IMG/VR virus record: IMGVR_UViG_3300037461_001570
Coordinates: 1 to 31,926 of that record
DNA length: 31,926 bases
Source of the DNA: a virus
Taxonomy: Duplodnaviria; Caudoviricetes
Strand: one strand, 5' to 3'
Shown one piece after another: positions 931 to 27,843 of this stretch (its first letter is position 1; each line of letters starts with the position of its first letter). The notes beneath the pieces were generated by a model, which saw nothing but the letters and a program-made list of their open reading frames with translations, did not search any database and was not told the DNA's origin. The position numbers and the translations under genes were made by a program.

Positions 931-958
931 TTGTATTCTTATAGTATTGTGCTATACT
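931..958 (+). promoter_or_regulatory. sigma70-like promoter upstream of tnpB
   Basis: TTGTAT-16 bp-TATACT with an extended -10 TG motif (TGTGCTATACT). Confidence 0.55.
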
Positions 959-1016
959 TTATTTATGAGCATCTCGGATACCTTGCTTAAGCTTTAAAGC
1001 AGATTTTTAAAAAATT

Positions 1017-2090
1017 ATGATAATAGAAACCTTTAAATATAGAATCAAAAAACCTAGCGCAAAACGTAGGCTATTGCGTTTAAGTAGGTCTGCTAACAAA
1101 GTTTTTAATAGTTGCAACGAACTATCTATAAAAGAGTTAGAGCAAAACAATAAGTTTTTAAGTTACTTTGATTTGGCTAAGCTCCACAAAGGCAAAGAAT
1201 GGGCTAAAGATATTGGCTTGAATTCGCAAACCACACAGGCTATATGCAAAGAGTATACAATCAGAAGAAAACAATTCAAAAAGAAAAAGCTTAAATGGAG
1301 AGTAAGCGATAAAAAGAAAAAGAGCAGATATTCTTTGGGATGGATACCGCTTAAAGCCGGTAACATTAAATTCAACGATGGTGTGGCCACATATTATGGT
1401 TATCAATATAAAACGTTTTTTCATAGACCTCTTCCTAATGGCGCCAAGATTAAATGTGGTAGTTTTAATGAAGACACATTAGGCAATTGGTACATCAATT
1501 TAACAGTTGAATATACACCTAATGAGCATACCCATGAAGTATGCGAACCAATAGGCGCAGACCCAGGGTTAAAGGATACCCTGGTTTTTTCAAATGGCGA
1601 GAGAATAAAAAACAACAGAGAATTTAAAAAACAGGAAGAAAAGATAGGGAAATTTCAAAGACACCATAAGAAAAAACAAGCAAGAAAGTTACATCAAAGG
1701 ATAAAAAACAGGAGAAAAGATTTTTTACATAAGGAGTCCCTAAGACTCACCAAGAAATACAAAGAAATATTTATAGGCAATGTCAGCGCTAAATTTTTAC
1801 AAAAAACAAACGGAAAATCTAGCGTTGATTCATCGGTTAGTATAATCGTAAATCTACTTGAATATAAAGCCAAAAGGCTTGGTGGATTTGTAAAAAAAGT
1901 AAAAGAAAATAACTCTACGGTAACTTGCTCAGCTTGTTTTAAAAGAACAGGGCCGAGTGGACTAAGAAACTGTAGTGTAAGAGAATGGACTTGTTCTATT
2001 TGTGGAGCAAATCATGATCGAGATATAAATGCTGCGATCAACATTCTCCGTTTCGGGCGCGAAACGCTGATAGTAGCAAACACTACTTAG
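1017..2090 (+). CDS. tnpB: IS200/IS605-family RNA-guided endonuclease TnpB, RuvC-II-rearranged type
   Basis: N-terminal TFKYRI, RuvC-I GADPG (D182), IFIGNV at the canonical RuvC-II position (G254), alternative Glu in KENNST (E297), Zn ribbon CSAC...CSIC, RuvC-III HDRDINAAINI (D336); 357 aa. Confidence 0.93.
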   Translation: MIIETFKYRIKKPSAKRRLLRLSRSANKVFNSCNELSIKELEQNNKFLSYFDLAKLHKGKEWAKDIGLNSQTTQAICKEYTIRRKQFKKKKLKWRVSDKKKKSRYSLGWIPLKAGNIKFNDGVATYYGYQYKTFFHRPLPNGAKIKCGSFNEDTLGNWYINLTVEYTPNEHTHEVCEPIGADPGLKDTLVFSNGERIKNNREFKKQEEKIGKFQRHHKKKQARKLHQRIKNRRKDFLHKESLRLTKKYKEIFIGNVSAKFLQKTNGKSSVDSSVSIIVNLLEYKAKRLGGFVKKVKENNSTVTCSACFKRTGPSGLRNCSVREWTCSICGANHDRDINAAINILRFGRETLIVANTT

Positions 2091-2145
2091 GGAAGCGCCG
2101 GCCTTTGGGCCGGTGAGGGCGCCACGGTTGTTCCGCTTGTTGAAT
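2050..2145 (+). ncRNA. 3' part of the putative TnpB omegaRNA (right-end scaffold plus about 19-20 nt guide)
   Basis: Hairpins AGTAG/CTACT (2072-2087) and CGCCGGCC-TTTG-GGCCGGTG (2096-2115) follow GGAAG, matching the layout of IS605 right ends. GGCGC (2056-2060) can pair with GCGCC (2119-2123). The guide is inferred at about 2126-2144, followed by a T7 run. The 5' boundary is unknown. Confidence 0.65.
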
Positions 2146-2165
2146 TTTTTTGAGTATTTATGCTA

Positions 2166-2200: not shown

Positions 2201-3358
2201 ATGAAGCTTCCTACTTTATACAAAAAGACTAATACCGGTGCTATTCAGTTTTGGTCTGTATCCGTTGATACCGATTTAGTTGATTTGAGTCTTAAGCCTG
2301 GAACCAGCAAAATAACGGTTCAGTATGGCCAGCTAGATACCGATAGCCCACAAGAAACCTTTGACATTATAGAGCACGGTAAAAACGTTGGAAAGAAAAA
2401 CGAAACAACTGCCTACGAACAAGCGGAACTAGAAGCTAAGTCTAAATGGGAAAAGCAGCTTAAAAAAGGTTATGTTAAAACCATAGAAGAAGCTAGAGAA
2501 GGAAAAATCGATACTATTATCGAGGGCGGTATATCCCCTATGCTTGCCCATAGATTTGACGAACATGGCCACAAAATAAAATATAGTTGCTACGGGCAAC
2601 CCAAACTAGACGGACATAGAATCATAGCCGTAGTCAAAGAAGGGCGTTGTACTCTTTGGTCTAGGACACAAAAGCCTATTAATTCTTTACCGCACATAGT
2701 AGACGCTATAGAAAAAATGGTCGGCAGTACATCTTGTATACTAGACGGCGAAGGATACTCCCATGATTTTAAAGAAAATTTTGAAAAAATCTCTTCTCTC
2801 ATAAGACAAGAAAATCCAGCCCCAGACTGCCATTTAGTTCAATATCACATTTATGACATGCCTAGCGCAAACGTACCATTTGAAGAGCGGCTGAAAGCAA
2901 TAAAGTCTTTACCCTGGGCCCAAAATCCCGGATGCCTAGTTATGGTCGATACAGTATTGCTTAACAATCAAGATGAAGCCACTGAATTTTTCTTAAAATG
3001 CTTAAATGATGGATACGAAGGCGCCATACTTCGAAATAAAGCTGGAATGTATGTCAACAAAAGATCGTATGACCTACAAAAAGTTAAAACCATGAAAGAC
3101 GATGAGTTTGATATCGTGGGCATAGAAGAAGGGAAGGGGCGACTTATTGGGCATGTAGGTTCTTTTATTTGCTCTATGCCAAACGGTAAGACATTTTTAG
3201 CGAAAATGTCAGGTAGTACAGATAAGCTTAGGGAATATTTTGTAAATCACCGACTTTGGGAAAACAAACGGCTGACCGTACAATATCAAGGACTTACCGC
3301 CAAAGAAGGCGTTCCAAGGTTTCCTGTAGGCATTAGAATAAGAGAAGAGGAGGATTAA
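2201..3358 (+). CDS. ATP-dependent DNA ligase with N-terminal WGR-like extension
   Basis: Motifs PMLA, QPKLDGHR (adenylated Lys), LDGE, YEGAILR, LQKVK, C-terminal OB-fold ending PRFP. Start moved from TTG 2150 to ATG 2201 because of the promoter position. Confidence 0.93.
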   Translation: MKLPTLYKKTNTGAIQFWSVSVDTDLVDLSLKPGTSKITVQYGQLDTDSPQETFDIIEHGKNVGKKNETTAYEQAELEAKSKWEKQLKKGYVKTIEEAREGKIDTIIEGGISPMLAHRFDEHGHKIKYSCYGQPKLDGHRIIAVVKEGRCTLWSRTQKPINSLPHIVDAIEKMVGSTSCILDGEGYSHDFKENFEKISSLIRQENPAPDCHLVQYHIYDMPSANVPFEERLKAIKSLPWAQNPGCLVMVDTVLLNNQDEATEFFLKCLNDGYEGAILRNKAGMYVNKRSYDLQKVKTMKDDEFDIVGIEEGKGRLIGHVGSFICSMPNGKTFLAKMSGSTDKLREYFVNHRLWENKRLTVQYQGLTAKEGVPRFPVGIRIREEED

Positions 3359-3493: not shown

Positions 3494-3829
3494 ATGAAAA
3501 TAAAACCAAACATTGCATTAGAAGCCGTCCGATGGTTTAAAAATGGCGATCATCCACAAGATGATGTGTATCGCCCGTTTGAAGATACGGGGCAAATTCC
3601 AACTGAACCAAGGGAAGGAAAAATTGTTCTATATTTTCGTCATCCGAATATTTCTGGCAACAATATGTGTTGCAAATGCGGCACGTTAGTCCACCACCAC
3701 GGGTGGATAGACAGCGGTGGGCCAGGACAAACAGTTTGTCCCGGAGATTATATTTTGACTGGACCAGACGGAAAATTTTATATTTTTAACCCTGAAGCAT
3801 TTTGGATCATTTTCGTGAAAGGTAACTAA
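3494..3829 (+). CDS. Hypothetical phage protein, Cys/His-rich (WFKNGDHP...CxxC...HGWID...VCPGD)
   Basis: ORF with protein-like composition; start reassigned to ATG 3494 from the promoter position. Confidence 0.75.
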   Translation: MKIKPNIALEAVRWFKNGDHPQDDVYRPFEDTGQIPTEPREGKIVLYFRHPNISGNNMCCKCGTLVHHHGWIDSGGPGQTVCPGDYILTGPDGKFYIFNPEAFWIIFVKGN

Positions 3830-3831
3830 CT

Positions 3832-4569
3832 ATGTGTCAATTTTTTAGCTTTATTTTAGACGAAAACGGCAAAATGCATTACTTTAATGCTAAACAACGT
3901 CTTGAATTTTTAAAGGATAATCCTAAACAACTTCATCTTGATAGCCATGCTTCAATAGCTGATTTTTTCAAATTAGATGAAGATAAATGCAATAAATACG
4001 AATATTCAAACGGCAAACTTATTGAAGATAATATTGTTCATAGCTTAAAGCCTAATAATTTCAATAAGTTTGTCAATAGCAAAGAGTTTCAAAAACTTTG
4101 CCTTGCAGCGGTAACGCGGGATGGCTTTGCTTTAGAATTTGTTAAAAAGCAAACCCCCAAAATTTGCCTTGCAGCGGTAAAGCAGAATGGCTGTGCTTTA
4201 TATTACGTTAAAGAGCAAACCCCCGAAATCTGCATGACAGCGGTAAAACAGAATGGATACGCTTTACAATTTGTTAAAGAGCAAACCCCTCGACTTTGCT
4301 TGGCAGCGGTAAAATATGATGGTTATGCCTTAAAATACGTTAAAAAGCAAACCCCCGCAATTTGCCTAGCAGCAGTAAAACAATGCGGCCATGCCCTAAA
4401 ATACGTTAAAGAGCAAACCCCTGCAATTTGCCTTGCAGCAGTAAAGCAGAATGGCCTTGTTTTAGATTATGTTAAAAAGCAAACCCCCGAAATCTGCTTG
4501 GCAGCGGTAACGCAGGATGGCTTAGCTTTACTATTTGTTAAACCAGAATTTATGCATCTATTTAAGTAA
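3832..4569 (+). CDS. DUF4116-like tandem-repeat protein (7 x 22 aa) with a unique N-terminal domain
   Basis: Repeat consensus xICLAAVKQNGxALxYVKxQTP, which resembles DUF4116 repeats. Confidence 0.85.
   Translation: MCQFFSFILDENGKMHYFNAKQRLEFLKDNPKQLHLDSHASIADFFKLDEDKCNKYEYSNGKLIEDNIVHSLKPNNFNKFVNSKEFQKLCLAAVTRDGFALEFVKKQTPKICLAAVKQNGCALYYVKEQTPEICMTAVKQNGYALQFVKEQTPRLCLAAVKYDGYALKYVKKQTPAICLAAVKQCGHALKYVKEQTPAICLAAVKQNGLVLDYVKKQTPEICLAAVTQDGLALLFVKPEFMHLFK
4093..4554 (+). repeat. 66-bp coding tandem repeat, 7 copies
   Basis: GCAGCGGTAA...GTTAAA(A/G)AGCAAACCCC recurs every 66 bp; the last copy diverges at its 3' end. Confidence 0.95.
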
Positions 4570-5661: not shown

Positions 5662-5667
5662 ATGTAT

Positions 5668-6003
5668 ATGCGTAGCTGGTATCCAATTCCGACTCAAATG
5701 TTGGACAGAAAGAGACTTTTAGCCGAGCATAACGAGTTACTAATTATGGCCAGAACAATAGCCGGTTTATCTAAAGGATGGGCCAATCATCCAGAGACCA
5801 ATCGCTGGAGGGGCCACTCTAAGGCTATGAAAAAACGACACGATGAATGCGCAGAAGAAATGGTTCGCAGGGGCTTTAAACACAGGTCTCCTTGGCCGGA
5901 AGAATTGATCAATTCTAACGAAACAGAAGATTATCCGGTAGCGCTGGTCGAACCGCTAGAAATAATGATACAAAAATTAAAAGAAAAGCAAGGGCTTTTA
6001 TGA
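5668..6003 (+). CDS. Pyrimidine-dimer DNA glycosylase / T4 endonuclease V-like (Pyr_excise family)
   Basis: MRxW...LDRKRLLAEHNE, NHP...W and EEMVRRGFKH motifs typical of the family; start at 5668 or 5662. Confidence 0.8.
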   Translation: MRSWYPIPTQMLDRKRLLAEHNELLIMARTIAGLSKGWANHPETNRWRGHSKAMKKRHDECAEEMVRRGFKHRSPWPEELINSNETEDYPVALVEPLEIMIQKLKEKQGLL

Positions 6004-20787: not shown

Positions 20788-23700
20788 ATGGCAGACTTAC
20801 CAGTACCAAAATCATATGAACAAATATTGTCTGAAATGCTTAGCGCATATGCTTCGCGTGTTGGCGTTAACGATTTTAACGTAGGCGGGGCCGCCCTAAG
20901 TTTTTTTGAAGTAGTAGCCCTAAGCACAGCGCGTGCATCTGGAGATATTTTTCAAATATTGCGAGATTTTAGCGTCGATAGAGCTACAGGTGAGGCATTA
21001 CAAAGATTAGCCATAGAAAACAAAGTTACTCCGATTACAGCTAAACCATCAACTGGCTCTATTTCGGTTACCGATACTAGTTTTACCAAAATTTTTACTA
21101 AAATTTATGCTGGAGCCAATCCACCCAATATAGGATCTACAGAAATTAAAGTAAGTGATGCGTCTCAGTTTCCTGCTTCCGGAACGGTTTATATTGGCAG
21201 AGGAACTCCAAACGTAGAAGAAGTTGATTATTCAAGTATTACGCCAAGCGGTGGATTGTACATTATAACATTATCTTCTGCTACCCAAAAATTTCACAAT
21301 GTAGGAGAAACAGTTGTATTGGCACAAGGCGGAGTAAGAACTATACCGGCTAACACTATTGTTAGATCCCCAGGCGTTGGCGCTAACGAAGATATAACTT
21401 TTACAGTAGTAAGCCAGGCTATTATATTAGACGGAGAAACAACTGTAGACAACGTTCAGGTCACCGCTCTAACGCCCGGAACCACAGGAAACGTTCCCCG
21501 TGGAGCCATCCGAGAGTTTGCCTCGCCTCCAATTGGATTATCTGAATCCGTTATAACGAACGATTTACCTTTTACTACTGGTCGAGATACAGAAACTGAC
21601 GATGAGTTGAGAGTTCGCATAAAAAGAGCAATAGCCTCCAGAGGGCTCGGTACTGCTACGGCCATTAAATCTGCTGTCATTGGAGCCGTTCCATCTGATG
21701 AACAATCTACTATTATTAGTAGTGAAATAATAAATGATGACTCTAGCGCCGTACTATATATAGATGACGGGACCGGCTATGAAGCAAAAACTGACGGAGT
21801 CGGCCTAGAGCCCATAGTTGACCAAGCATTTGGCGGAGAACAGTATTTTCAGCTTACAACTGGCGGAAGACAGGCGCCTATAGCTAAAGCATTTTTACTG
21901 TCTACTTTTGAGGCCCCATTTGACTTAATTGGAAGCGATACGCTTGCAGTAGTAGTCGGAGAACAAACCTATCAGCATGTTTTCTCTGATTCTGATTTTA
22001 GAAGTCCAGGCGGAGCTACCGCTTATGAGGTAGCGGCTAGCATTAATGCTAACACCACAATCGGCTTTGAAGCTACAACTAGTGGAGGCGGACAATACGT
22101 TGTAATTAGATCTAAGACTGAGGACAGCGATTCTTTGATGGTCACAGATCCTACAACTACTGGACGCAACGCAGCAACGCTACTAGGCTTTCCATTCAAT
22201 CAAGTACAGACGTTGAGGTTATATAAAAACAAGAAATTTTTGACTAAAGATGGAAAATCTGCATCCGTTTTTACTACTAGTCAGCAAAATTGGGCATCAA
22301 CAATAGCAGAAGGTGACACCCTCACTCTTAGCGTTGACGGGACCGACTATATTACTTATACACTAATGGATGCCGATTTTATAGCAACAGGGCTAGCTAA
22401 TAGCGTATCATCTACCGCTCCCCTTGAAGTTTGGGTAGAAGTATTAAATAATAAATTAACTGGAGTAACCGCATCAATAGTTGGCCAACAAATACGATTA
22501 ACTAGCAATTTAGGTATTAGCAATAGGGCCCAGATTTCTATCGACCCTTATTCTGTTTTGGTGTCTAAGGGAATGTTTACTGTTACAATGGGGTTATCGG
22601 CGCAAGGACAGGCGTCAGATTTTTCGCTATCAAGAAATACAGCCCAATTTAAATTAGCGACACCGCTAGAAGCCGGAGATGAATTATCAGCTGGATCTGA
22701 TAAAACTGAGGCTAGAATCGAAAGCTTAGAAATATCAGGCGGAAGCATCACCCTTACCTCGGACGCCCACGTCTGGTTTTTGGTAGATAGTAGCGGAGAA
22801 ATAATTCCTACTGGAGTAACCAGCAATTCAATACTGGATATCACTAAGCCATCCCCAAATAAAGTACGATATGAATCCGGCATTGTTAATGCATTTGCCA
22901 ATGTTTTGGTCGGCGATTACTTTATCGTTTGGTCGGAAGAAATTGACTCCAATAATAGATTAGAAGGAAGAGTCAGTGAGGTTACTTCATCTACATTAAC
23001 CATTGACGTTACATCCGCAGAATATTCGGCATCGGTTCCACAAACTGGTATTATTTTTAGTGAAGGATTTAGCGTTCTTAGAAGCGTGTCTGCTCCACAA
23101 AAATTTAAAGTAAGCGCAGGAACCAAAACTATTGACCAAATAGCGGCAGAACTACAAGCGCAAACATCAGCTTTATCGTTTAGCACACTAGAAGATAAAT
23201 ATTTAGTAGTTGAATCGCAGACTAAAAATACGTCTGGATCAGTATTAGTAGTAACGGCGGATTTAGAAGGAAAACTATTAAATTTTAGAGCCGGAGCTAG
23301 CGATACCAGCAAAGAATCCTTAATTGCTTTTTATGAGAGTGGAGCCAAAGAAGCTCAGTTTCCATTATTCGTACACGCAGCTTTTGCCGCAGGATCTGCT
23401 GCCAATCCTCCAGATACTTTTATTAACAGTGTTGTGTCTTCGTTAAGTTTTTCTGGACGAGATCCAAATGAATTGATACGCATTATTCAACCATATGGCT
23501 CTGTTAACGATGTGCAGCCATATAACGAGTATACACAAATCGAGACTATTTCCGGAGCAACGCTTGGTATAGACACTAATCCATTAATTCGTAGACTTAG
23601 GGTGGCAGATAGATTTTTTATAGCTAATCCGCTAGATTTCGGACACAAGGATACATCCGTAGTAATAGCTGACGATGATACTACATCTAAAAGCTTCGAG

Positions 23701-26700
23701 ATACCATTTTACCGTAGGGCTATTACAAATACATCACTAGCCGTAAATCCATCTAACTTTAATGCTTACGATGTTGATTCTGGTCCTACAACTAGCTTTG
23801 CAGCTTATTTTGATGAGTTTGATTTTTCTAACTTTAAAGTGATGATGCAGGCCAAGAAAGTATTAAATCATTCTAGCCTAGAAGATGCCCTTCTTTATAG
23901 ATCGGTTAGATGGGGCAGAAGTGGAGAAAAAATAACCATAGGGTACGATTACCCATCTTCAGCAAATAAGGCCCTTGATCACACCGTTTCTGTCTCGGAA
24001 TCCGTGGATATTAGAGTTTATCTCAAGAGCGGAGCCTCTATAACTACCTTGATTAATGCCACAACTGGATGGAATGTAACCATAACTCCAAATACTCCTG
24101 TAGCTGGAGTAGATCAAGTTACTTATACATGGAGCGGTGTAGGCGCTGCGCCAGCACTATCTTTGTCTGGCGGAGAGTATGTTAATATATCTTCACAATC
24201 AGGATTTGATCCTGCCAATATAGGCATTTTTAGGGTATCAACCGAGGTAGGATTTGCCCCAACAGCGACTAGCTTTACCATACAACGAAAAACGGGAGAA
24301 GCCGTAGCAGAATCTGGAGTTTTAACTCAAGTTAATGGATCTATCAATTTTTATAACTCTAGCGATACAACCGCTGACGACATAAATACTTATGTAAATG
24401 CATCAATCGCAGATTATATAACCAGTTTGATAGTTGATGATGGCGGAACCAGCGGCTCTGGAATTATAAATAAGAGTACATATGAAGATAGCAATTTTGT
24501 GTACGATAGAGTACAGCTTAAAGACGGATTAAATTGGATTTTATCTAGCGATACCGCTGGGTCTCCACAATTTATTTTCAAAAAGCCGTTAGATTTATCA
24601 TCTGACACTGGATATAATTTTAACGAAGCCGAAGAATTACGATTAGTACCGACAACACAGGATCAAGTTAAACGTTTATTGTCAGTATTAGCTGTAACCG
24701 GATTTACGACAGTGGGAACAATTAAAACCACTGAGCGCGGCTCACAATTAGAACTTGCGACTAAACTATTAGGCAGTGATGGGGCCATTCAAATCATAGG
24801 CGGTGCAGCCAATGGATATGAGGTGCCAATAATTGGTACGGCGTCTAGATTGAACAATACGTCAGCTTTAGTTTCTGTAGACAAAGTGGCGGCGCAGGAT
24901 GTCCATAGTGACCAGTGGTTTAGATTAGAGTCTTCTGTTTTACAAAGAAAAGTTATAAATATAGACTCTAACACAAGCGTATCAGTAGCTAGCAATAGTC
25001 CAACTGCCGGAAAGAGTACTATCGGTTTCTTAAATAGATCTCTTAACCAAAGGTATTTTGGCCAACCCAGACATTTTGTTAGGTCTAAAGGGCGTAATTT
25101 TAGGATCGAAAAACACGGAGATATCGCCTGCTTAAGCTGGGATGGCAATGGATCTAGTCCACAGTTTATCAAATCTAGTTTAAATTTTAATGATGTTGGC
25201 GGTGGAACCATTAACGTACAAACAATATTTGGATCTAATGATGCCGAATACACTATTTTGACCGGAGACGCCAATTTCACAGAACTTTCGATAGGAGATC
25301 TGATTACTATATCAGGACTTCCGGTTAGCGCGAACAACGGTACTTTTTTGGTTACCGGGGTCTCTGATAACGGAAAAATAGTTAGAGTTCTTAACCCTGA
25401 AGCTGAGGATGAGTTTTCTAACGGGTATTTTGATTTTTCTGGAAACGTTACACCTGTTGATAATTTCAATATTAATAACAATAATTTATATGCAGATGTT
25501 GATTTTGCCATTGGTGTCACAACATTAGACACCCAAAACAACTTAGCTGCAGCGCTTGCGGCGTTGCCTAACGTATCTTCATCTGTTGTTGGTAGCGACG
25601 TAATAGCTCAATCTACATTATCTATACCACAAATTTCAATATTTCATGCCGGAGACGCAGCAATAACGTCAAAGGGAAGATTTGATTTTTCCAGTAATTG
25701 TAATTCCGGAGATGTTTTCTCTGTAGGAACAACAGACTTTATAGCTGGAACTAGCTTTACGATTGGAGCAACTATTCTCGATACAGCCACCAATCTGGCC
25801 GCTGAAATCAATTCATTGCCTGGATACACATCTTTGGCGGGAGCAACCGATGTTTCGGTATCTTCTACTTCTCCAAATGGAACCGTATCTATTATTTACA
25901 AAGGATCTGCTACTATTACAGTAAACGGCATATTCACGTTAGGAGCAAACGCATACGAGGGTGATGCTTTTACGGTTGATACTACTACTTTAATTACAGG
26001 CAAAGACTTTGTTGTTGGAAACACTACGGCTGAATCCCAAGTCAATCTATCCTTGGCCATCAGTGCGATAGCCGGGGTTACGTCGCATGTCGATTCTACT
26101 TATGTTATTGTAACAGCTACATCTTTAAATGCTACGATACCGATTTCATACGCAGGAAGCCCAGTTGTTACCGTTAGCGGAGCATTACTTGTTGGAGATA
26201 GTTTTTCTGCAGGAGATTTTTCTGCTTCTAGTGAAGTCTCAGAGGGCGATTCATTAATTATTGAATTCCCATTTCCTGAATTAAATCAAGGTAAATTTAG
26301 AGTAATTCGCAGATATCAGGATAGCGTATGGTTTGAAAATTCCAATGCAGTTGAACAAGAAGTATCGTTGCCATTAAATCCGGCTCCCACGGGAGTAAAC
26401 CTGTATGTAGACGTAACAACTTCATTAAAAATTGATAGCTCTAACAATGGTTGTTATTTGACCTGGAATGACCTAGGAACAGAGCCCGCCCTTGGCAATG
26501 CAAAGGTAGGAGATATCTTAACCCTAGGTTCAGATTTTGCCGTTGTAAATCAAGGTGAATTCATGGTAAAACGCTCAGGCGCTAAATTACCAGAAATAAC
26601 AAAACTGACAATGCCAAGCTCAACCCAATTGCCCACTGGGGCTGGCGTTGGCAAATATTTCCTGATCAATAGCGCAGGAGATGCCATCGAGTATTATGTG

Positions 26701-27843
26701 TGGTTTAACAATGGGTTTAATACCGATCCAGCTATAGTAGGTAAAACTGATATAGAAGTAGCCTTTTTACCAGGAGATTCTGCGATACAGATTGCAGCAA
26801 AGGCTGCTATAGCCATCGGGGCTGCCACCGGATTATCTGCAACGTCATCGGCAGAAGTTGTAACTGTTACCACTACCGATTCTAAAGAGACAACGCATGC
26901 CTCTAATGGCGATATGCCGTCTCCATTTGGGATTATATTATTTCAAGCTGGAAGACGTACATTCTTAGAATGTATCAATCCATCCGCTGCAGACGAGGCC
27001 GCCGTTTTCGTATCAGGCGGAACCTTTGAGTGCCATAGACCGCAGATTCAGTTCTATGAATATGATGCCACGGTAGCCGGCGATAGTATTTCTGTTACAG
27101 GCGACGTACTAACCCTGCCTAATGCTGGAACTTATGTTGTCGATTCAGTTTTAGATAAGGATACAGTGGTAGTAACCGGATCTTTAGTTTCAGTGTTTAA
27201 CGTTAGTCTTAATAACAGAGAAACATCAATATTTGTACAAGAACAAAACGTTTATACTGGATATAAACGGGTTTCTTTGGCTGCCACTCAACCTGGGGCT
27301 CCACAGCGCACTAATTTGATTTTTGATACTAATGCTCAATATAATAAAATTAACGAATCGTCTCTCACGCAAATGAGCGCTATTGGCAAATTGTCATTTA
27401 GCACATCTATCAAAAAAGGTCTTGATAGTTATAGGTATAATATTGGATTAATAGCTGAAGCTAATCGCATTATTTATGGCGATCCTAGAGATCCAACTAC
27501 TTATCCAGGCGTTGGAGCAGCTGGTGCAGATATTTATGTTCGCGAACCATTGACTAGGCGCATTCAAGTATCTATAGTTGTTCGAATCAATACAGGTGTA
27601 CCATTTGCCGCCATTGTCGAGCAAGTTAGAACTAACGTAAGCTCATTGATTAATTCGAATCCGATCGGTCAACCTATTGCAATTAGCGCCATAGTAAGTA
27701 CAGTAAATTCTATACCGGGAGTAAGAGCGGTAGCTATAAGTAGTCCACAATATGACTCGACACATGATGTTATTTATTTAGCATCTTCTGAGAAAGCTAG
27801 AATTATCGACCCAGTACTAGACGTATCGGTCTCATCAGTTTAA
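20788..27843 (+). CDS. Giant Baseplate-J/gp47-like wedge protein (2351 aa) with a large multidomain insertion
   Basis: N-terminal ATGEALQRLA, ALTPGTTGNV, TGRDTETDDELRVRI and C-terminal IGQPIAISAIVSTVNSIPGVRAV are Baseplate-J hallmarks; Ser/Thr/Gly-rich beta-domain repeats lie between. Confidence 0.88.
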   Translation: MADLPVPKSYEQILSEMLSAYASRVGVNDFNVGGAALSFFEVVALSTARASGDIFQILRDFSVDRATGEALQRLAIENKVTPITAKPSTGSISVTDTSFTKIFTKIYAGANPPNIGSTEIKVSDASQFPASGTVYIGRGTPNVEEVDYSSITPSGGLYIITLSSATQKFHNVGETVVLAQGGVRTIPANTIVRSPGVGANEDITFTVVSQAIILDGETTVDNVQVTALTPGTTGNVPRGAIREFASPPIGLSESVITNDLPFTTGRDTETDDELRVRIKRAIASRGLGTATAIKSAVIGAVPSDEQSTIISSEIINDDSSAVLYIDDGTGYEAKTDGVGLEPIVDQAFGGEQYFQLTTGGRQAPIAKAFLLSTFEAPFDLIGSDTLAVVVGEQTYQHVFSDSDFRSPGGATAYEVAASINANTTIGFEATTSGGGQYVVIRSKTEDSDSLMVTDPTTTGRNAATLLGFPFNQVQTLRLYKNKKFLTKDGKSASVFTTSQQNWASTIAEGDTLTLSVDGTDYITYTLMDADFIATGLANSVSSTAPLEVWVEVLNNKLTGVTASIVGQQIRLTSNLGISNRAQISIDPYSVLVSKGMFTVTMGLSAQGQASDFSLSRNTAQFKLATPLEAGDELSAGSDKTEARIESLEISGGSITLTSDAHVWFLVDSSGEIIPTGVTSNSILDITKPSPNKVRYESGIVNAFANVLVGDYFIVWSEEIDSNNRLEGRVSEVTSSTLTIDVTSAEYSASVPQTGIIFSEGFSVLRSVSAPQKFKVSAGTKTIDQIAAELQAQTSALSFSTLEDKYLVVESQTKNTSGSVLVVTADLEGKLLNFRAGASDTSKESLIAFYESGAKEAQFPLFVHAAFAAGSAANPPDTFINSVVSSLSFSGRDPNELIRIIQPYGSVNDVQPYNEYTQIETISGATLGIDTNPLIRRLRVADRFFIANPLDFGHKDTSVVIADDDTTSKSFEIPFYRRAITNTSLAVNPSNFNAYDVDSGPTTSFAAYFDEFDFSNFKVMMQAKKVLNHSSLEDALLYRSVRWGRSGEKITIGYDYPSSANKALDHTVSVSESVDIRVYLKSGASITTLINATTGWNVTITPNTPVAGVDQVTYTWSGVGAAPALSLSGGEYVNISSQSGFDPANIGIFRVSTEVGFAPTATSFTIQRKTGEAVAESGVLTQVNGSINFYNSSDTTADDINTYVNASIADYITSLIVDDGGTSGSGIINKSTYEDSNFVYDRVQLKDGLNWILSSDTAGSPQFIFKKPLDLSSDTGYNFNEAEELRLVPTTQDQVKRLLSVLAVTGFTTVGTIKTTERGSQLELATKLLGSDGAIQIIGGAANGYEVPIIGTASRLNNTSALVSVDKVAAQDVHSDQWFRLESSVLQRKVINIDSNTSVSVASNSPTAGKSTIGFLNRSLNQRYFGQPRHFVRSKGRNFRIEKHGDIACLSWDGNGSSPQFIKSSLNFNDVGGGTINVQTIFGSNDAEYTILTGDANFTELSIGDLITISGLPVSANNGTFLVTGVSDNGKIVRVLNPEAEDEFSNGYFDFSGNVTPVDNFNINNNNLYADVDFAIGVTTLDTQNNLAAALAALPNVSSSVVGSDVIAQSTLSIPQISIFHAGDAAITSKGRFDFSSNCNSGDVFSVGTTDFIAGTSFTIGATILDTATNLAAEINSLPGYTSLAGATDVSVSSTSPNGTVSIIYKGSATITVNGIFTLGANAYEGDAFTVDTTTLITGKDFVVGNTTAESQVNLSLAISAIAGVTSHVDSTYVIVTATSLNATIPISYAGSPVVTVSGALLVGDSFSAGDFSASSEVSEGDSLIIEFPFPELNQGKFRVIRRYQDSVWFENSNAVEQEVSLPLNPAPTGVNLYVDVTTSLKIDSSNNGCYLTWNDLGTEPALGNAKVGDILTLGSDFAVVNQGEFMVKRSGAKLPEITKLTMPSSTQLPTGAGVGKYFLINSAGDAIEYYVWFNNGFNTDPAIVGKTDIEVAFLPGDSAIQIAAKAAIAIGAATGLSATSSAEVVTVTTTDSKETTHASNGDMPSPFGIILFQAGRRTFLECINPSAADEAAVFVSGGTFECHRPQIQFYEYDATVAGDSISVTGDVLTLPNAGTYVVDSVLDKDTVVVTGSLVSVFNVSLNNRETSIFVQEQNVYTGYKRVSLAATQPGAPQRTNLIFDTNAQYNKINESSLTQMSAIGKLSFSTSIKKGLDSYRYNIGLIAEANRIIYGDPRDPTTYPGVGAAGADIYVREPLTRRIQVSIVVRINTGVPFAAIVEQVRTNVSSLINSNPIGQPIAISAIVSTVNSIPGVRAVAISSPQYDSTHDVIYLASSEKARIIDPVLDVSVSSV
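25420..26175 (+). repeat. Three diverged 84-aa (252-bp) domain repeats within the Baseplate-J-like protein
   Basis: NGYFDFSGN (25420), KGRFDFSSN (25672), NGIFTLGAN (25924), each with FxxGxT...NLxxxI/L. Confidence 0.85.

Follow-up and report, generated by a model that had tools for sequence, protein, structure and literature searches.

Genes and features of the locus

The window, that is, the whole stretch of DNA analyzed, covers an entire virus record of 31,926 bases, in which genes for baseplate, virion, and transglycosylase proteins were identified with Pfam and PHROG profiles. The region of interest contains a tnpB gene, the right end of a transposon, and a neighboring DNA ligase gene, with the following features.

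931..958, plus strand: promoter-like site TTGTAT-16-TATACT with an extended -10 element TG-n-TATACT, read from the sequence only
965..997, plus strand: upstream ORF of 10 codons, in a different frame from tnpB; its start lies 6 nt downstream of the -10 hexamer
1017..2090, plus strand: tnpB, 357 aa, of the RuvC-II-rearranged type (profiles, homologue alignment, fold model)
2049..2066, plus strand: predicted omegaRNA stem 1 (2049-2054 with 2061-2066), inside the tnpB ORF (alignment pairing and fold)
2056-2060, plus strand: predicted 5' pseudoknot strand GGCGC, in the loop of stem 1
2073..2086, plus strand: variable hairpin (fold); its position matches that of a hairpin of different sequence in the sister loci L168 and L355
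2092..2095, plus strand: right-end TnpA guide tetranucleotide GAAG (alignment and guide/cleavage pair counts); GAAT in most relatives
2096..2115, plus strand: right-end hairpin and predicted omegaRNA stem 4, 8 bp, loop TTTG (alignment, pairing, fold)
2119..2125, plus strand: end GCGCCAC, comprising the 3' pseudoknot strand GCGCC (2119-2123) and the transposon boundary
2126..2144, plus strand: predicted guide, the flank outside the right end (~16-19 nt; alignment position and the guide-from-flank rule of PMC10097598)
2145..2151, plus strand: T7 run (sequence), 15-21 nt upstream of the promoter-like site of the ligase gene (2166-2193)
2201..3358, plus strand: ATP-dependent DNA ligase gene (Pfam/PHROG), a neighbor of tnpB whose membership in the element is not shown

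The nearest ligases found are at most 59-60% identical to the ligase beside tnpB, and no close phage relative is among them. The preliminary description drew attention to the position next to a ligase gene; a link between the two genes finds no support, as tnpB was present within 3 kb at 0/23 loci of related ligases (31-55% identical). Several ligase relatives reside on contigs of 165-177 kb, a hint of a large myovirus group.

Several further features of the contig were recorded. It starts with a perfect 14-nt tandem repeat (1-102, 7.3 copies). The long non-coding region upstream of tnpB carries a 36-nt direct repeat pair and a 20-nt repeat (352-426 and 702-763), the latter doubling as a 21-bp inverted repeat that is possibly operator- or origin-like. 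Two genes near the ligase gene (3832-4569 and 5662-6003) encode a DUF4116 repeat protein (tandem unit of 66 nt) and a pyrimidine-dimer glycosylase. An ORF of 2351 aa (20788-27843) has a Baseplate_J match near its N-terminus as its sole match.

TnpB protein and its catalytic site

The product of ORF 1017-2090 scores 169 bits with the guided_TnpB profile NF040570 (cut-off 100) and matches the Pfam families OrfB_IS605 and Cas12f1-like_TNB, with PF07282 and PF01385 above cut-off. Its key residues are D182, G254 (within IFIGNV, at the position of the canonical Glu), E297, and D336, together with a C4 zinc ribbon (C304/C307/C326/C329). G254 is aligned to the RuvC-II position of ISDra2 TnpB, and E297 lies 43 residues after G254 and 7 residues ahead of C304, the first zinc-binding Cys. 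The preliminary description had reported the same arrangement, and all 119 of the 119 best homologues agree with it, D182, G254, E297, and D336 being invariant among them. Thus, the relocated Glu is a clade trait, and by this alignment E297 is very likely the catalytic residue that replaces the RuvC-II Glu.

Homologues are numerous: 1412 of 5570 candidates were retained at E<=1e-30, and the top non-self matches are 53-55% identical. The protein cluster of the window TnpB has only two members; its representative, not identical to the window protein (residue 293 differs), keeps 54/56 highly conserved columns and ranks 28 of 120, which is normal. A near-identical second protein (P0001), with I for K at residue 293, is encoded on a 3242-nt contig. 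In the tree, which comprises the sequences gathered in the present analysis and leaves the published RIIr references outside, the window protein falls in a clade with L168 (support 1.0) on a terminal branch of 0.52, above the 90th percentile.

No stop codon, frameshift, or excess loss of conserved residues was observed in tnpB. Comparison with tnpB of L168 gave a dN of 0.49 versus a dS of ~2.9, the latter saturated. The GC3 of tnpB is 0.31, host-like when set against 0.24-0.37. The AlphaFold model has a pLDDT of 84.6 and a pTM of 0.58, with residues 257-269 below a pLDDT of 50, and its fold matches place ISDra2 TnpB at rank 1 and Fanzor2 at rank 11. Judged by these sequence features, the gene is intact and its product is a TnpB of a type described before, predicted to cleave DNA under RNA guidance.

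Expression signals

An own promoter had been proposed for tnpB. The promoter-like site at 931-958 is indeed present, and its spacing from the -10 hexamer to the ATG equals that of the sites before the ligase gene and the ORF at 3494; however, it is absent from the 8 sites returned by the consensus scan, a number that is itself near chance (5.5 +/- 1.8). Among relatives, a -10-like hexamer 5-8 nt ahead of the start codon was found in 46/131 cases, compared with 2/334 for internal ATGs; thus, such a promoter is ordinary in the clade rather than particular to the window. The three -10 hexamers located 6-7 nt ahead of an ATG in the contig (953-967, 2188-2203, and 3482-3496) suggest leaderless transcripts.

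No Shine-Dalgarno-like sequence precedes tnpB, and the nearest ATG (965) opens the 10-codon ORF. Thus, the expression of tnpB is uncertain. The T7 run was considered as an intrinsic terminator and rejected, since no hairpin stands before it; it may just as well be an A/T tract belonging to the ligase promoter. Few relatives (2/78) have a T6 run located 10-35 nt past the end.

Right end and predicted omegaRNA

Of 241 sequences (240 loci and the window), 167 ORFs carry the alternative Glu, and an end was found for 107 of them: TCAA in 92, TCAC in 7, CCAC in 4, and CCAA in 4. The other 60/167 ORFs had no end under the end-finding rule and lie outside all end counts; from a second viral set, 28/59 loci were dropped as duplicate or unparsed. 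The alignment combines the window with 54 relatives, namely 50 of 89 compact ends and 4 loci added later. Conservation in this alignment stops after CAA or CAC, which fixes the boundary at 2125. The cleavage tetranucleotide of the window is therefore CCAC (2122-2125), in the place where TCAA or TCAC is usual. The right hairpin, the 19 nt after the end, and the T7 run of the preliminary description are all present, with the correction that the guide starts at 2126 and not at 2125.

Pairing is retained throughout the alignment. Stem 1 is paired in 99.7% of cells, with two-sided changes at all 6 pairs; the pseudoknot, in which GCGCC of the end pairs with GGCGC as had been proposed, is held across relatives (99.3%), and the hairpin is paired in 89.0%. 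Over all pairing, 95.1% of cells are paired compared with 70.9% in shuffles (0/500 shuffles as high), and two-sided changes number 219 versus 66 in shuffles, for rows that were hand-picked and a structure that was read from those same sequences. Relative to the tnpA-bearing sister L355, two-sided changes are seen by eye in stem 1 (one pair), in the pseudoknot (two pairs), and in the hairpin; the hairpin at 2073-2086 also differs in sequence from that of L355 by eye. The loop of the right-end hairpin is TTTA in 51/60 parsed ends and TTTG in the window, and the window right end has 77% GC.

In ISDra2, bases -5 to -3 form a pseudoknot (PMC10097598), and the pairing layout of the window right end matches that of ISDra2. 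We thus predict an omegaRNA that overlaps the end of the gene and places the pseudoknot directly before the guide, and the predicted RNA fold is conserved by compensatory changes. A search of Rfam gave no match.

A subgroup of these rearranged TnpBs has other ends. Fifteen loci (L007, L010, L011, L014, L050, L185, L193, L197, L203, L206, L211, L213, L223, L226, and L227) possess a longer, different 3' end, which is located ~140-160 nt after the RuvC-III Asp codon, reaches the stop codon, and has no TCAA/TCAC finish; this subgroup possibly represents an immobilised lineage. Among the loci with unparsed ends, 37/48 are solo and lack a left end.

Position -4 in the TnpA code and in the pseudoknot

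In IS608, the cleavage tetranucleotide pairs with the four bases located 5' of the hairpin (C-3:G and T-4:A), and the AG after the hairpin forms triplets (PMC3201880). In our alignment, these two guide pairs hold in 52 and 50 of 54 rows. The third guide pair, which we take to be that of guide position 4 with the last base, holds in 51 rows and shows five switches from T:A to G:C. In the window, the first pair and the AG are retained and the third pair is switched, but A:C stands at the second pair. By these signs its end is an otherwise well-kept transposon end. The change from T to C at position -4 keeps the pseudoknot and breaks the A-T guide pair of TnpA; thus, the odd base favors the RNA over TnpA. 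The switched third pair is a change at the level of TnpA, and selection by TnpA therefore probably continued in the lineage once it had split from L168 and L355.

Ends with C at position -4 (C-type ends) show three features: (i) none of 9 is accompanied by a left end, versus 48/95 T-type ends (Fisher p=0.003, window excluded, without phylogenetic correction), and the viral loci taken separately give 0/9 versus 15/44 (p=0.047, with the same phylogenetic caveat); (ii) they are commoner in viral loci (9/56 versus 2/72); and (iii) they are scattered over the tree, at no fewer than five positions. They also occur apart from tnpB. One genome (G005, contigs C4-C29) has 21 right ends, 20 with TCAA and one with CCAA, the latter without tnpB, and another C-type end likewise lacks tnpB; orphan right ends with C at position -4 are represented by L423 and L431. 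A pattern search gave 12 matches in 11/401 genomes, none of them a C-type end at a tnpB gene: 2 are orphan ends and the others are chance matches by eye. No conclusion rests on two of these matches, which come from the unpublished genomes G146 and G313. C(-4) thus marks dead-end copies, yet it is also found on fossil ends lacking tnpB and can arise by drift.

Pattern scans for the window-type end returned only the contig of L012 and chance matches. The C(-4) pattern was not met in the publications surveyed, which were gathered for other questions, and this is no proof of novelty. The earlier suggestion that selection acts on the RNA rather than on mobility therefore stands in part: the pseudoknot of the window is kept at the expense of a TnpA guide pair, and relatives with C(-4) lack left ends, but the hairpin, the AG, and two of the three guide pairs of the window are retained, and C(-4) is not confined to ends with a tnpB gene.

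Absence of tnpA and of a left end, and mobility of relatives

The absence of tnpA and of a left end, noted in the preliminary description, was confirmed. A tblastn search with tnpA of L355 found no tnpA in the whole 31.9-kb contig, whereas tnpA is present in 18/131 relatives. No left end was found in 1-1046: the best profile score was -7.4 bits, compared with a mean of -10.4 +/- 4.6 and a maximum of 6.7 in shuffles, and the hairpin finder was negative in the same region. The profile was built from 35 seeds, of which 29/35 scored >=16 bits in leave-one-out runs and 6 were missed; in the background, 1/130 stretches passed 16 bits. At ~975-1000, GATAC stands before an AT-rich palindrome; this candidate for a decayed left end was discarded, its score being -31 bits.

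A solo tnpB without a left end is the commonest state in phages (41/56 viral loci), left-end calls being lower bounds. The nearest relatives with available DNA carry tnpA: L168 and L355 (52% identity) have divergent tnpA genes and GAAT/TCAA ends. With the single protein as query, direct locus searches found one distant locus in viruses and none in genomes.

Mobility is evident within the clade. The Ralstonia phages Hyacinthe (L358), Heva (L359), and Dimitile (L360) share an element that is 99.5-99.8% identical and is flanked on the right by different DNA in each of the three; in the clade, nearly all pairs of near-identical copies likewise have unlike flanks. Copies with different right flanks had been named beforehand as the sign of an ordinary passenger; they were seen in these relatives of the window element. 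The match of Heva to the other two phages begins 2 nt before tnpB, so its tnpA and left end were lost very recently.

Guide and target search

The exact guide 16-mer has 86 matches in 84 viral stretches, the longest extending to 20 nt in total. None of these matches continues into the flank, and no common TAM was found (flanks available in full for 80/84). A blastn search of phage records with the guide gave chance-level matches (E 2-8) among the 15 of 125 listed, and blastn against phages and plasmids gave chance matches or none. The left flank of the element is lost, and the TAM is thus unreadable.

Guide positions 5-16 (2130-2141) match 12 nt of the minus strand of the ligase gene (2418-2429). 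This antisense match was taken as chance, as 3 of the first 4 guide positions mismatch; comparable 12-nt matches occur for ~2% of 19-mers in the contig (within 1.5 kb) and in 4/78 relatives. Published TnpB activities include the cutting of empty (chromosomal donor) sites (PMC10055086) and gene drive or action on plasmids (PMC11870625).

Interpretation of the locus

The locus is probably a stranded remnant of an IS605 element, consisting of tnpB and the right end without the transposase and the left end, a selfish passenger that is probably still active. A transcript overlapping the 3' end of tnpB would be processed to an omegaRNA whose scaffold ends at 2125. Catalysis would proceed via D182, E297, and D336, with E297 in place of the RuvC-II Glu. 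The guide (2126-~2141) would correspond to the DNA flanking the last insertion, and the only predicted target would be the element-free version of the element's own insertion site. No empty site was seen and this target is thus inferred, the nearest ligases, being so distant, offering no close counterpart of the locus. With no left end and one TnpA guide pair broken, the copy would not be excised by TnpA. The copy may persist passively, or it may act by homing or gene drive, cleaving the same phage locus where a co-infecting genome lacks the element; neither would require any benefit to the phage. Counting against the stranded passenger, homing requires homology on both sides and the left flank is lost, and the long branch, the host-like GC3, and the GC-rich right end also fit a long residence under other selection.

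A recently truncated relic, which lost its left part by recombination, is translated little or not at all, and drifts with a fold inherited from its mobile past, is unlikely. Such truncation is exemplified by Heva, at 99.5% identity to intact copies, and the missing Shine-Dalgarno sequence and the out-of-frame upstream ORF would suit poor translation. Plain drift could produce C(-4), as it occurs on the orphan ends L423 and L431 and on 1/21 ends in one genome, and the T:A to G:C switch at a TnpA-level pair indicates that the lineage was probably still mobile after leaving L168 and L355. The gene itself argues otherwise: it has no stop or frameshift and retains the conserved residues, its dN is far below the (saturated) dS, and every omegaRNA helix is intact.

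A broader scenario, of which the window locus would be one example, may also be considered. Phages may repeatedly free TnpB by losing the left end and convergently changing T-4 to C, at the single base required by TnpA and dispensable for the pseudoknot; selection may then retain the locked-guide nuclease to attack rival phage alleles or some gene of the host. We regard this as quite unlikely.

Domestication by the phage, as suggested in the preliminary description, is unsupported and appears improbable for a nuclease or a binder alike; the fixed guide would be directed against the ligase region, a phage in competition, or a gene of the host. The absence of left ends from relatives with C(-4), the excess of C-type ends in viral loci, and their several places on the tree speak for it, as do the rarity of the T6 run and the antisense match to the ligase gene. 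However, the counts for C(-4) are not phylogenetically independent, no conserved neighbor was seen (0/23 ligase loci), and the solo state is usual in phages. No target or empty site was found either: the 16-nt matches in viral stretches share no TAM and none exceeds 20 nt, the phage matches are at chance level, and the ligase match misses most of the first guide positions and recurs by chance.

It is very unlikely that the window carries a still mobilisable IS1341-like element, whose left end would be too divergent for the profile and whose CCAC would be accepted by a TnpA acting in trans. Hairpin, AG, and two of the three guide pairs persist at the right end, the left end of L056 has CCAT opposite an uncompensated GAAA guide (by eye), and the profile overlooked 6/35 seeds. 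Against this, two methods found no left-end-like hairpin in 1-1046, and no multi-copy C-type end at tnpB was present among the 12 pattern matches. In addition, T-4:A belongs to the recognition network of IS608 (PMC3201880), and elements with mutated right-end motifs were not excised (PMC10055086).

A nuclease-dead, TldR-like RNA-guided repressor is highly improbable: the canonical RuvC-II Glu is absent and TldRs are known from phages (PMC10705468), but D182, E297, D336, and the zinc ribbon are intact and invariant, and TldRs as described there lack identifiable ends and have conserved partners, unlike the window locus.

The stranded passenger offers a compact TnpB of 357 aa that is usable for a cleavage test, although not a surprising one. 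Of more general interest is position -4, a base shared by the cleavage code of TnpA and the pseudoknot of the omegaRNA, at which C marks copies without left ends. If this pattern holds with phylogenetic control, immobilised TnpBs could be recognised simply from their sequence, and whether phages retain them as nucleases for homing could be addressed. Should the guide prove fixed and aimed at a real target, the locus would be a nuclease-active counterpart of TldR domestication.

Comparison with known systems

Reports of tnpB genes carried by phages have been published (10.64898/2026.02.14.705889, PMC11437467). As to phage-borne TldRs (PMC10705468), the window locus resembles them in phage location, in the absence of tnpA, and in a guide encoded after the gene; the decayed active sites, the lack of recognisable ends, and the conserved partner genes reported for TldR loci have no equivalent in it.

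The likeness to IS605/IS1341 elements such as ISDra2 and IS608 includes (i) stem 1 and a pseudoknot ahead of the guide (PMC10097598), (ii) a four-base guide located 5' of the hairpin, an AG after it, and a cleavage tetranucleotide 10 nt from its foot (PMC3201880), and (iii) the solo tnpB, which is the commoner form (PMC10055086). The window differs from ISDra2 and IS608 in CCAC with an uncompensated GAAG guide, in the loop TTTG, and in the lack of a left end; the canonical RuvC-II Glu is present in ISDra2 TnpB and replaced in the window TnpB.

The term "Fanzor-like" in the preliminary description was overstated. Fanzor2 (ApmFNuc/L79, PDB 9b0l) has the same kind of relocated catalytic Glu; however, its similarity to the window protein is far weaker than that of bacterial TnpB (E 3e-8 versus 4e-18), it is 520 aa long compared with 357 aa, and the window gene has a bacterial IS605-type end and relatives in bacteria and phages. 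Kinship with Fanzors was rejected, as ISDra2 TnpB outscores Fanzor2 in both sequence and fold and the setting is a phage; the large number of homologues places the protein in a large prokaryotic TnpB group.

The closest known counterparts are RIIr-5 (Altae-Tran 2023, PMC10691335) and TnpB2, e.g., TvTnpB (Jiang 2023, PMC10530073). RIIr-5 is the largest rearranged TnpB group, in which Gly takes the place of Glu and an alternative Glu is present; in the same survey, 89% of TnpB clusters appear immobile, solo TnpBs are frequently found, and certain rearranged branches are specific to viruses (PMC10691335). Cleavage has been described for the rearranged TvTnpB, and the alternative Glu is essential in a Fanzor (PMC10530073). 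Both RIIr-5/TnpB2 and the window TnpB have Gly at the position of the RuvC-II Glu, an alternative Glu offset by ~45 residues in the former and 43 in the latter, a DRDxN RuvC-III motif, a C4 zinc ribbon, and an omegaRNA (predicted for the window) overlapping the end of the gene. They are thus the same in kind, the window copy being without tnpA or a left end. By its motifs, the window TnpB would be of the RIIr-5/TnpB2 type, its branch being RIIr-5 or another RIIr, e.g., the virus-associated RIIr-4. Rather than a special link to Fanzors, the locus represents a further compact member of a large, lightly characterised TnpB group.
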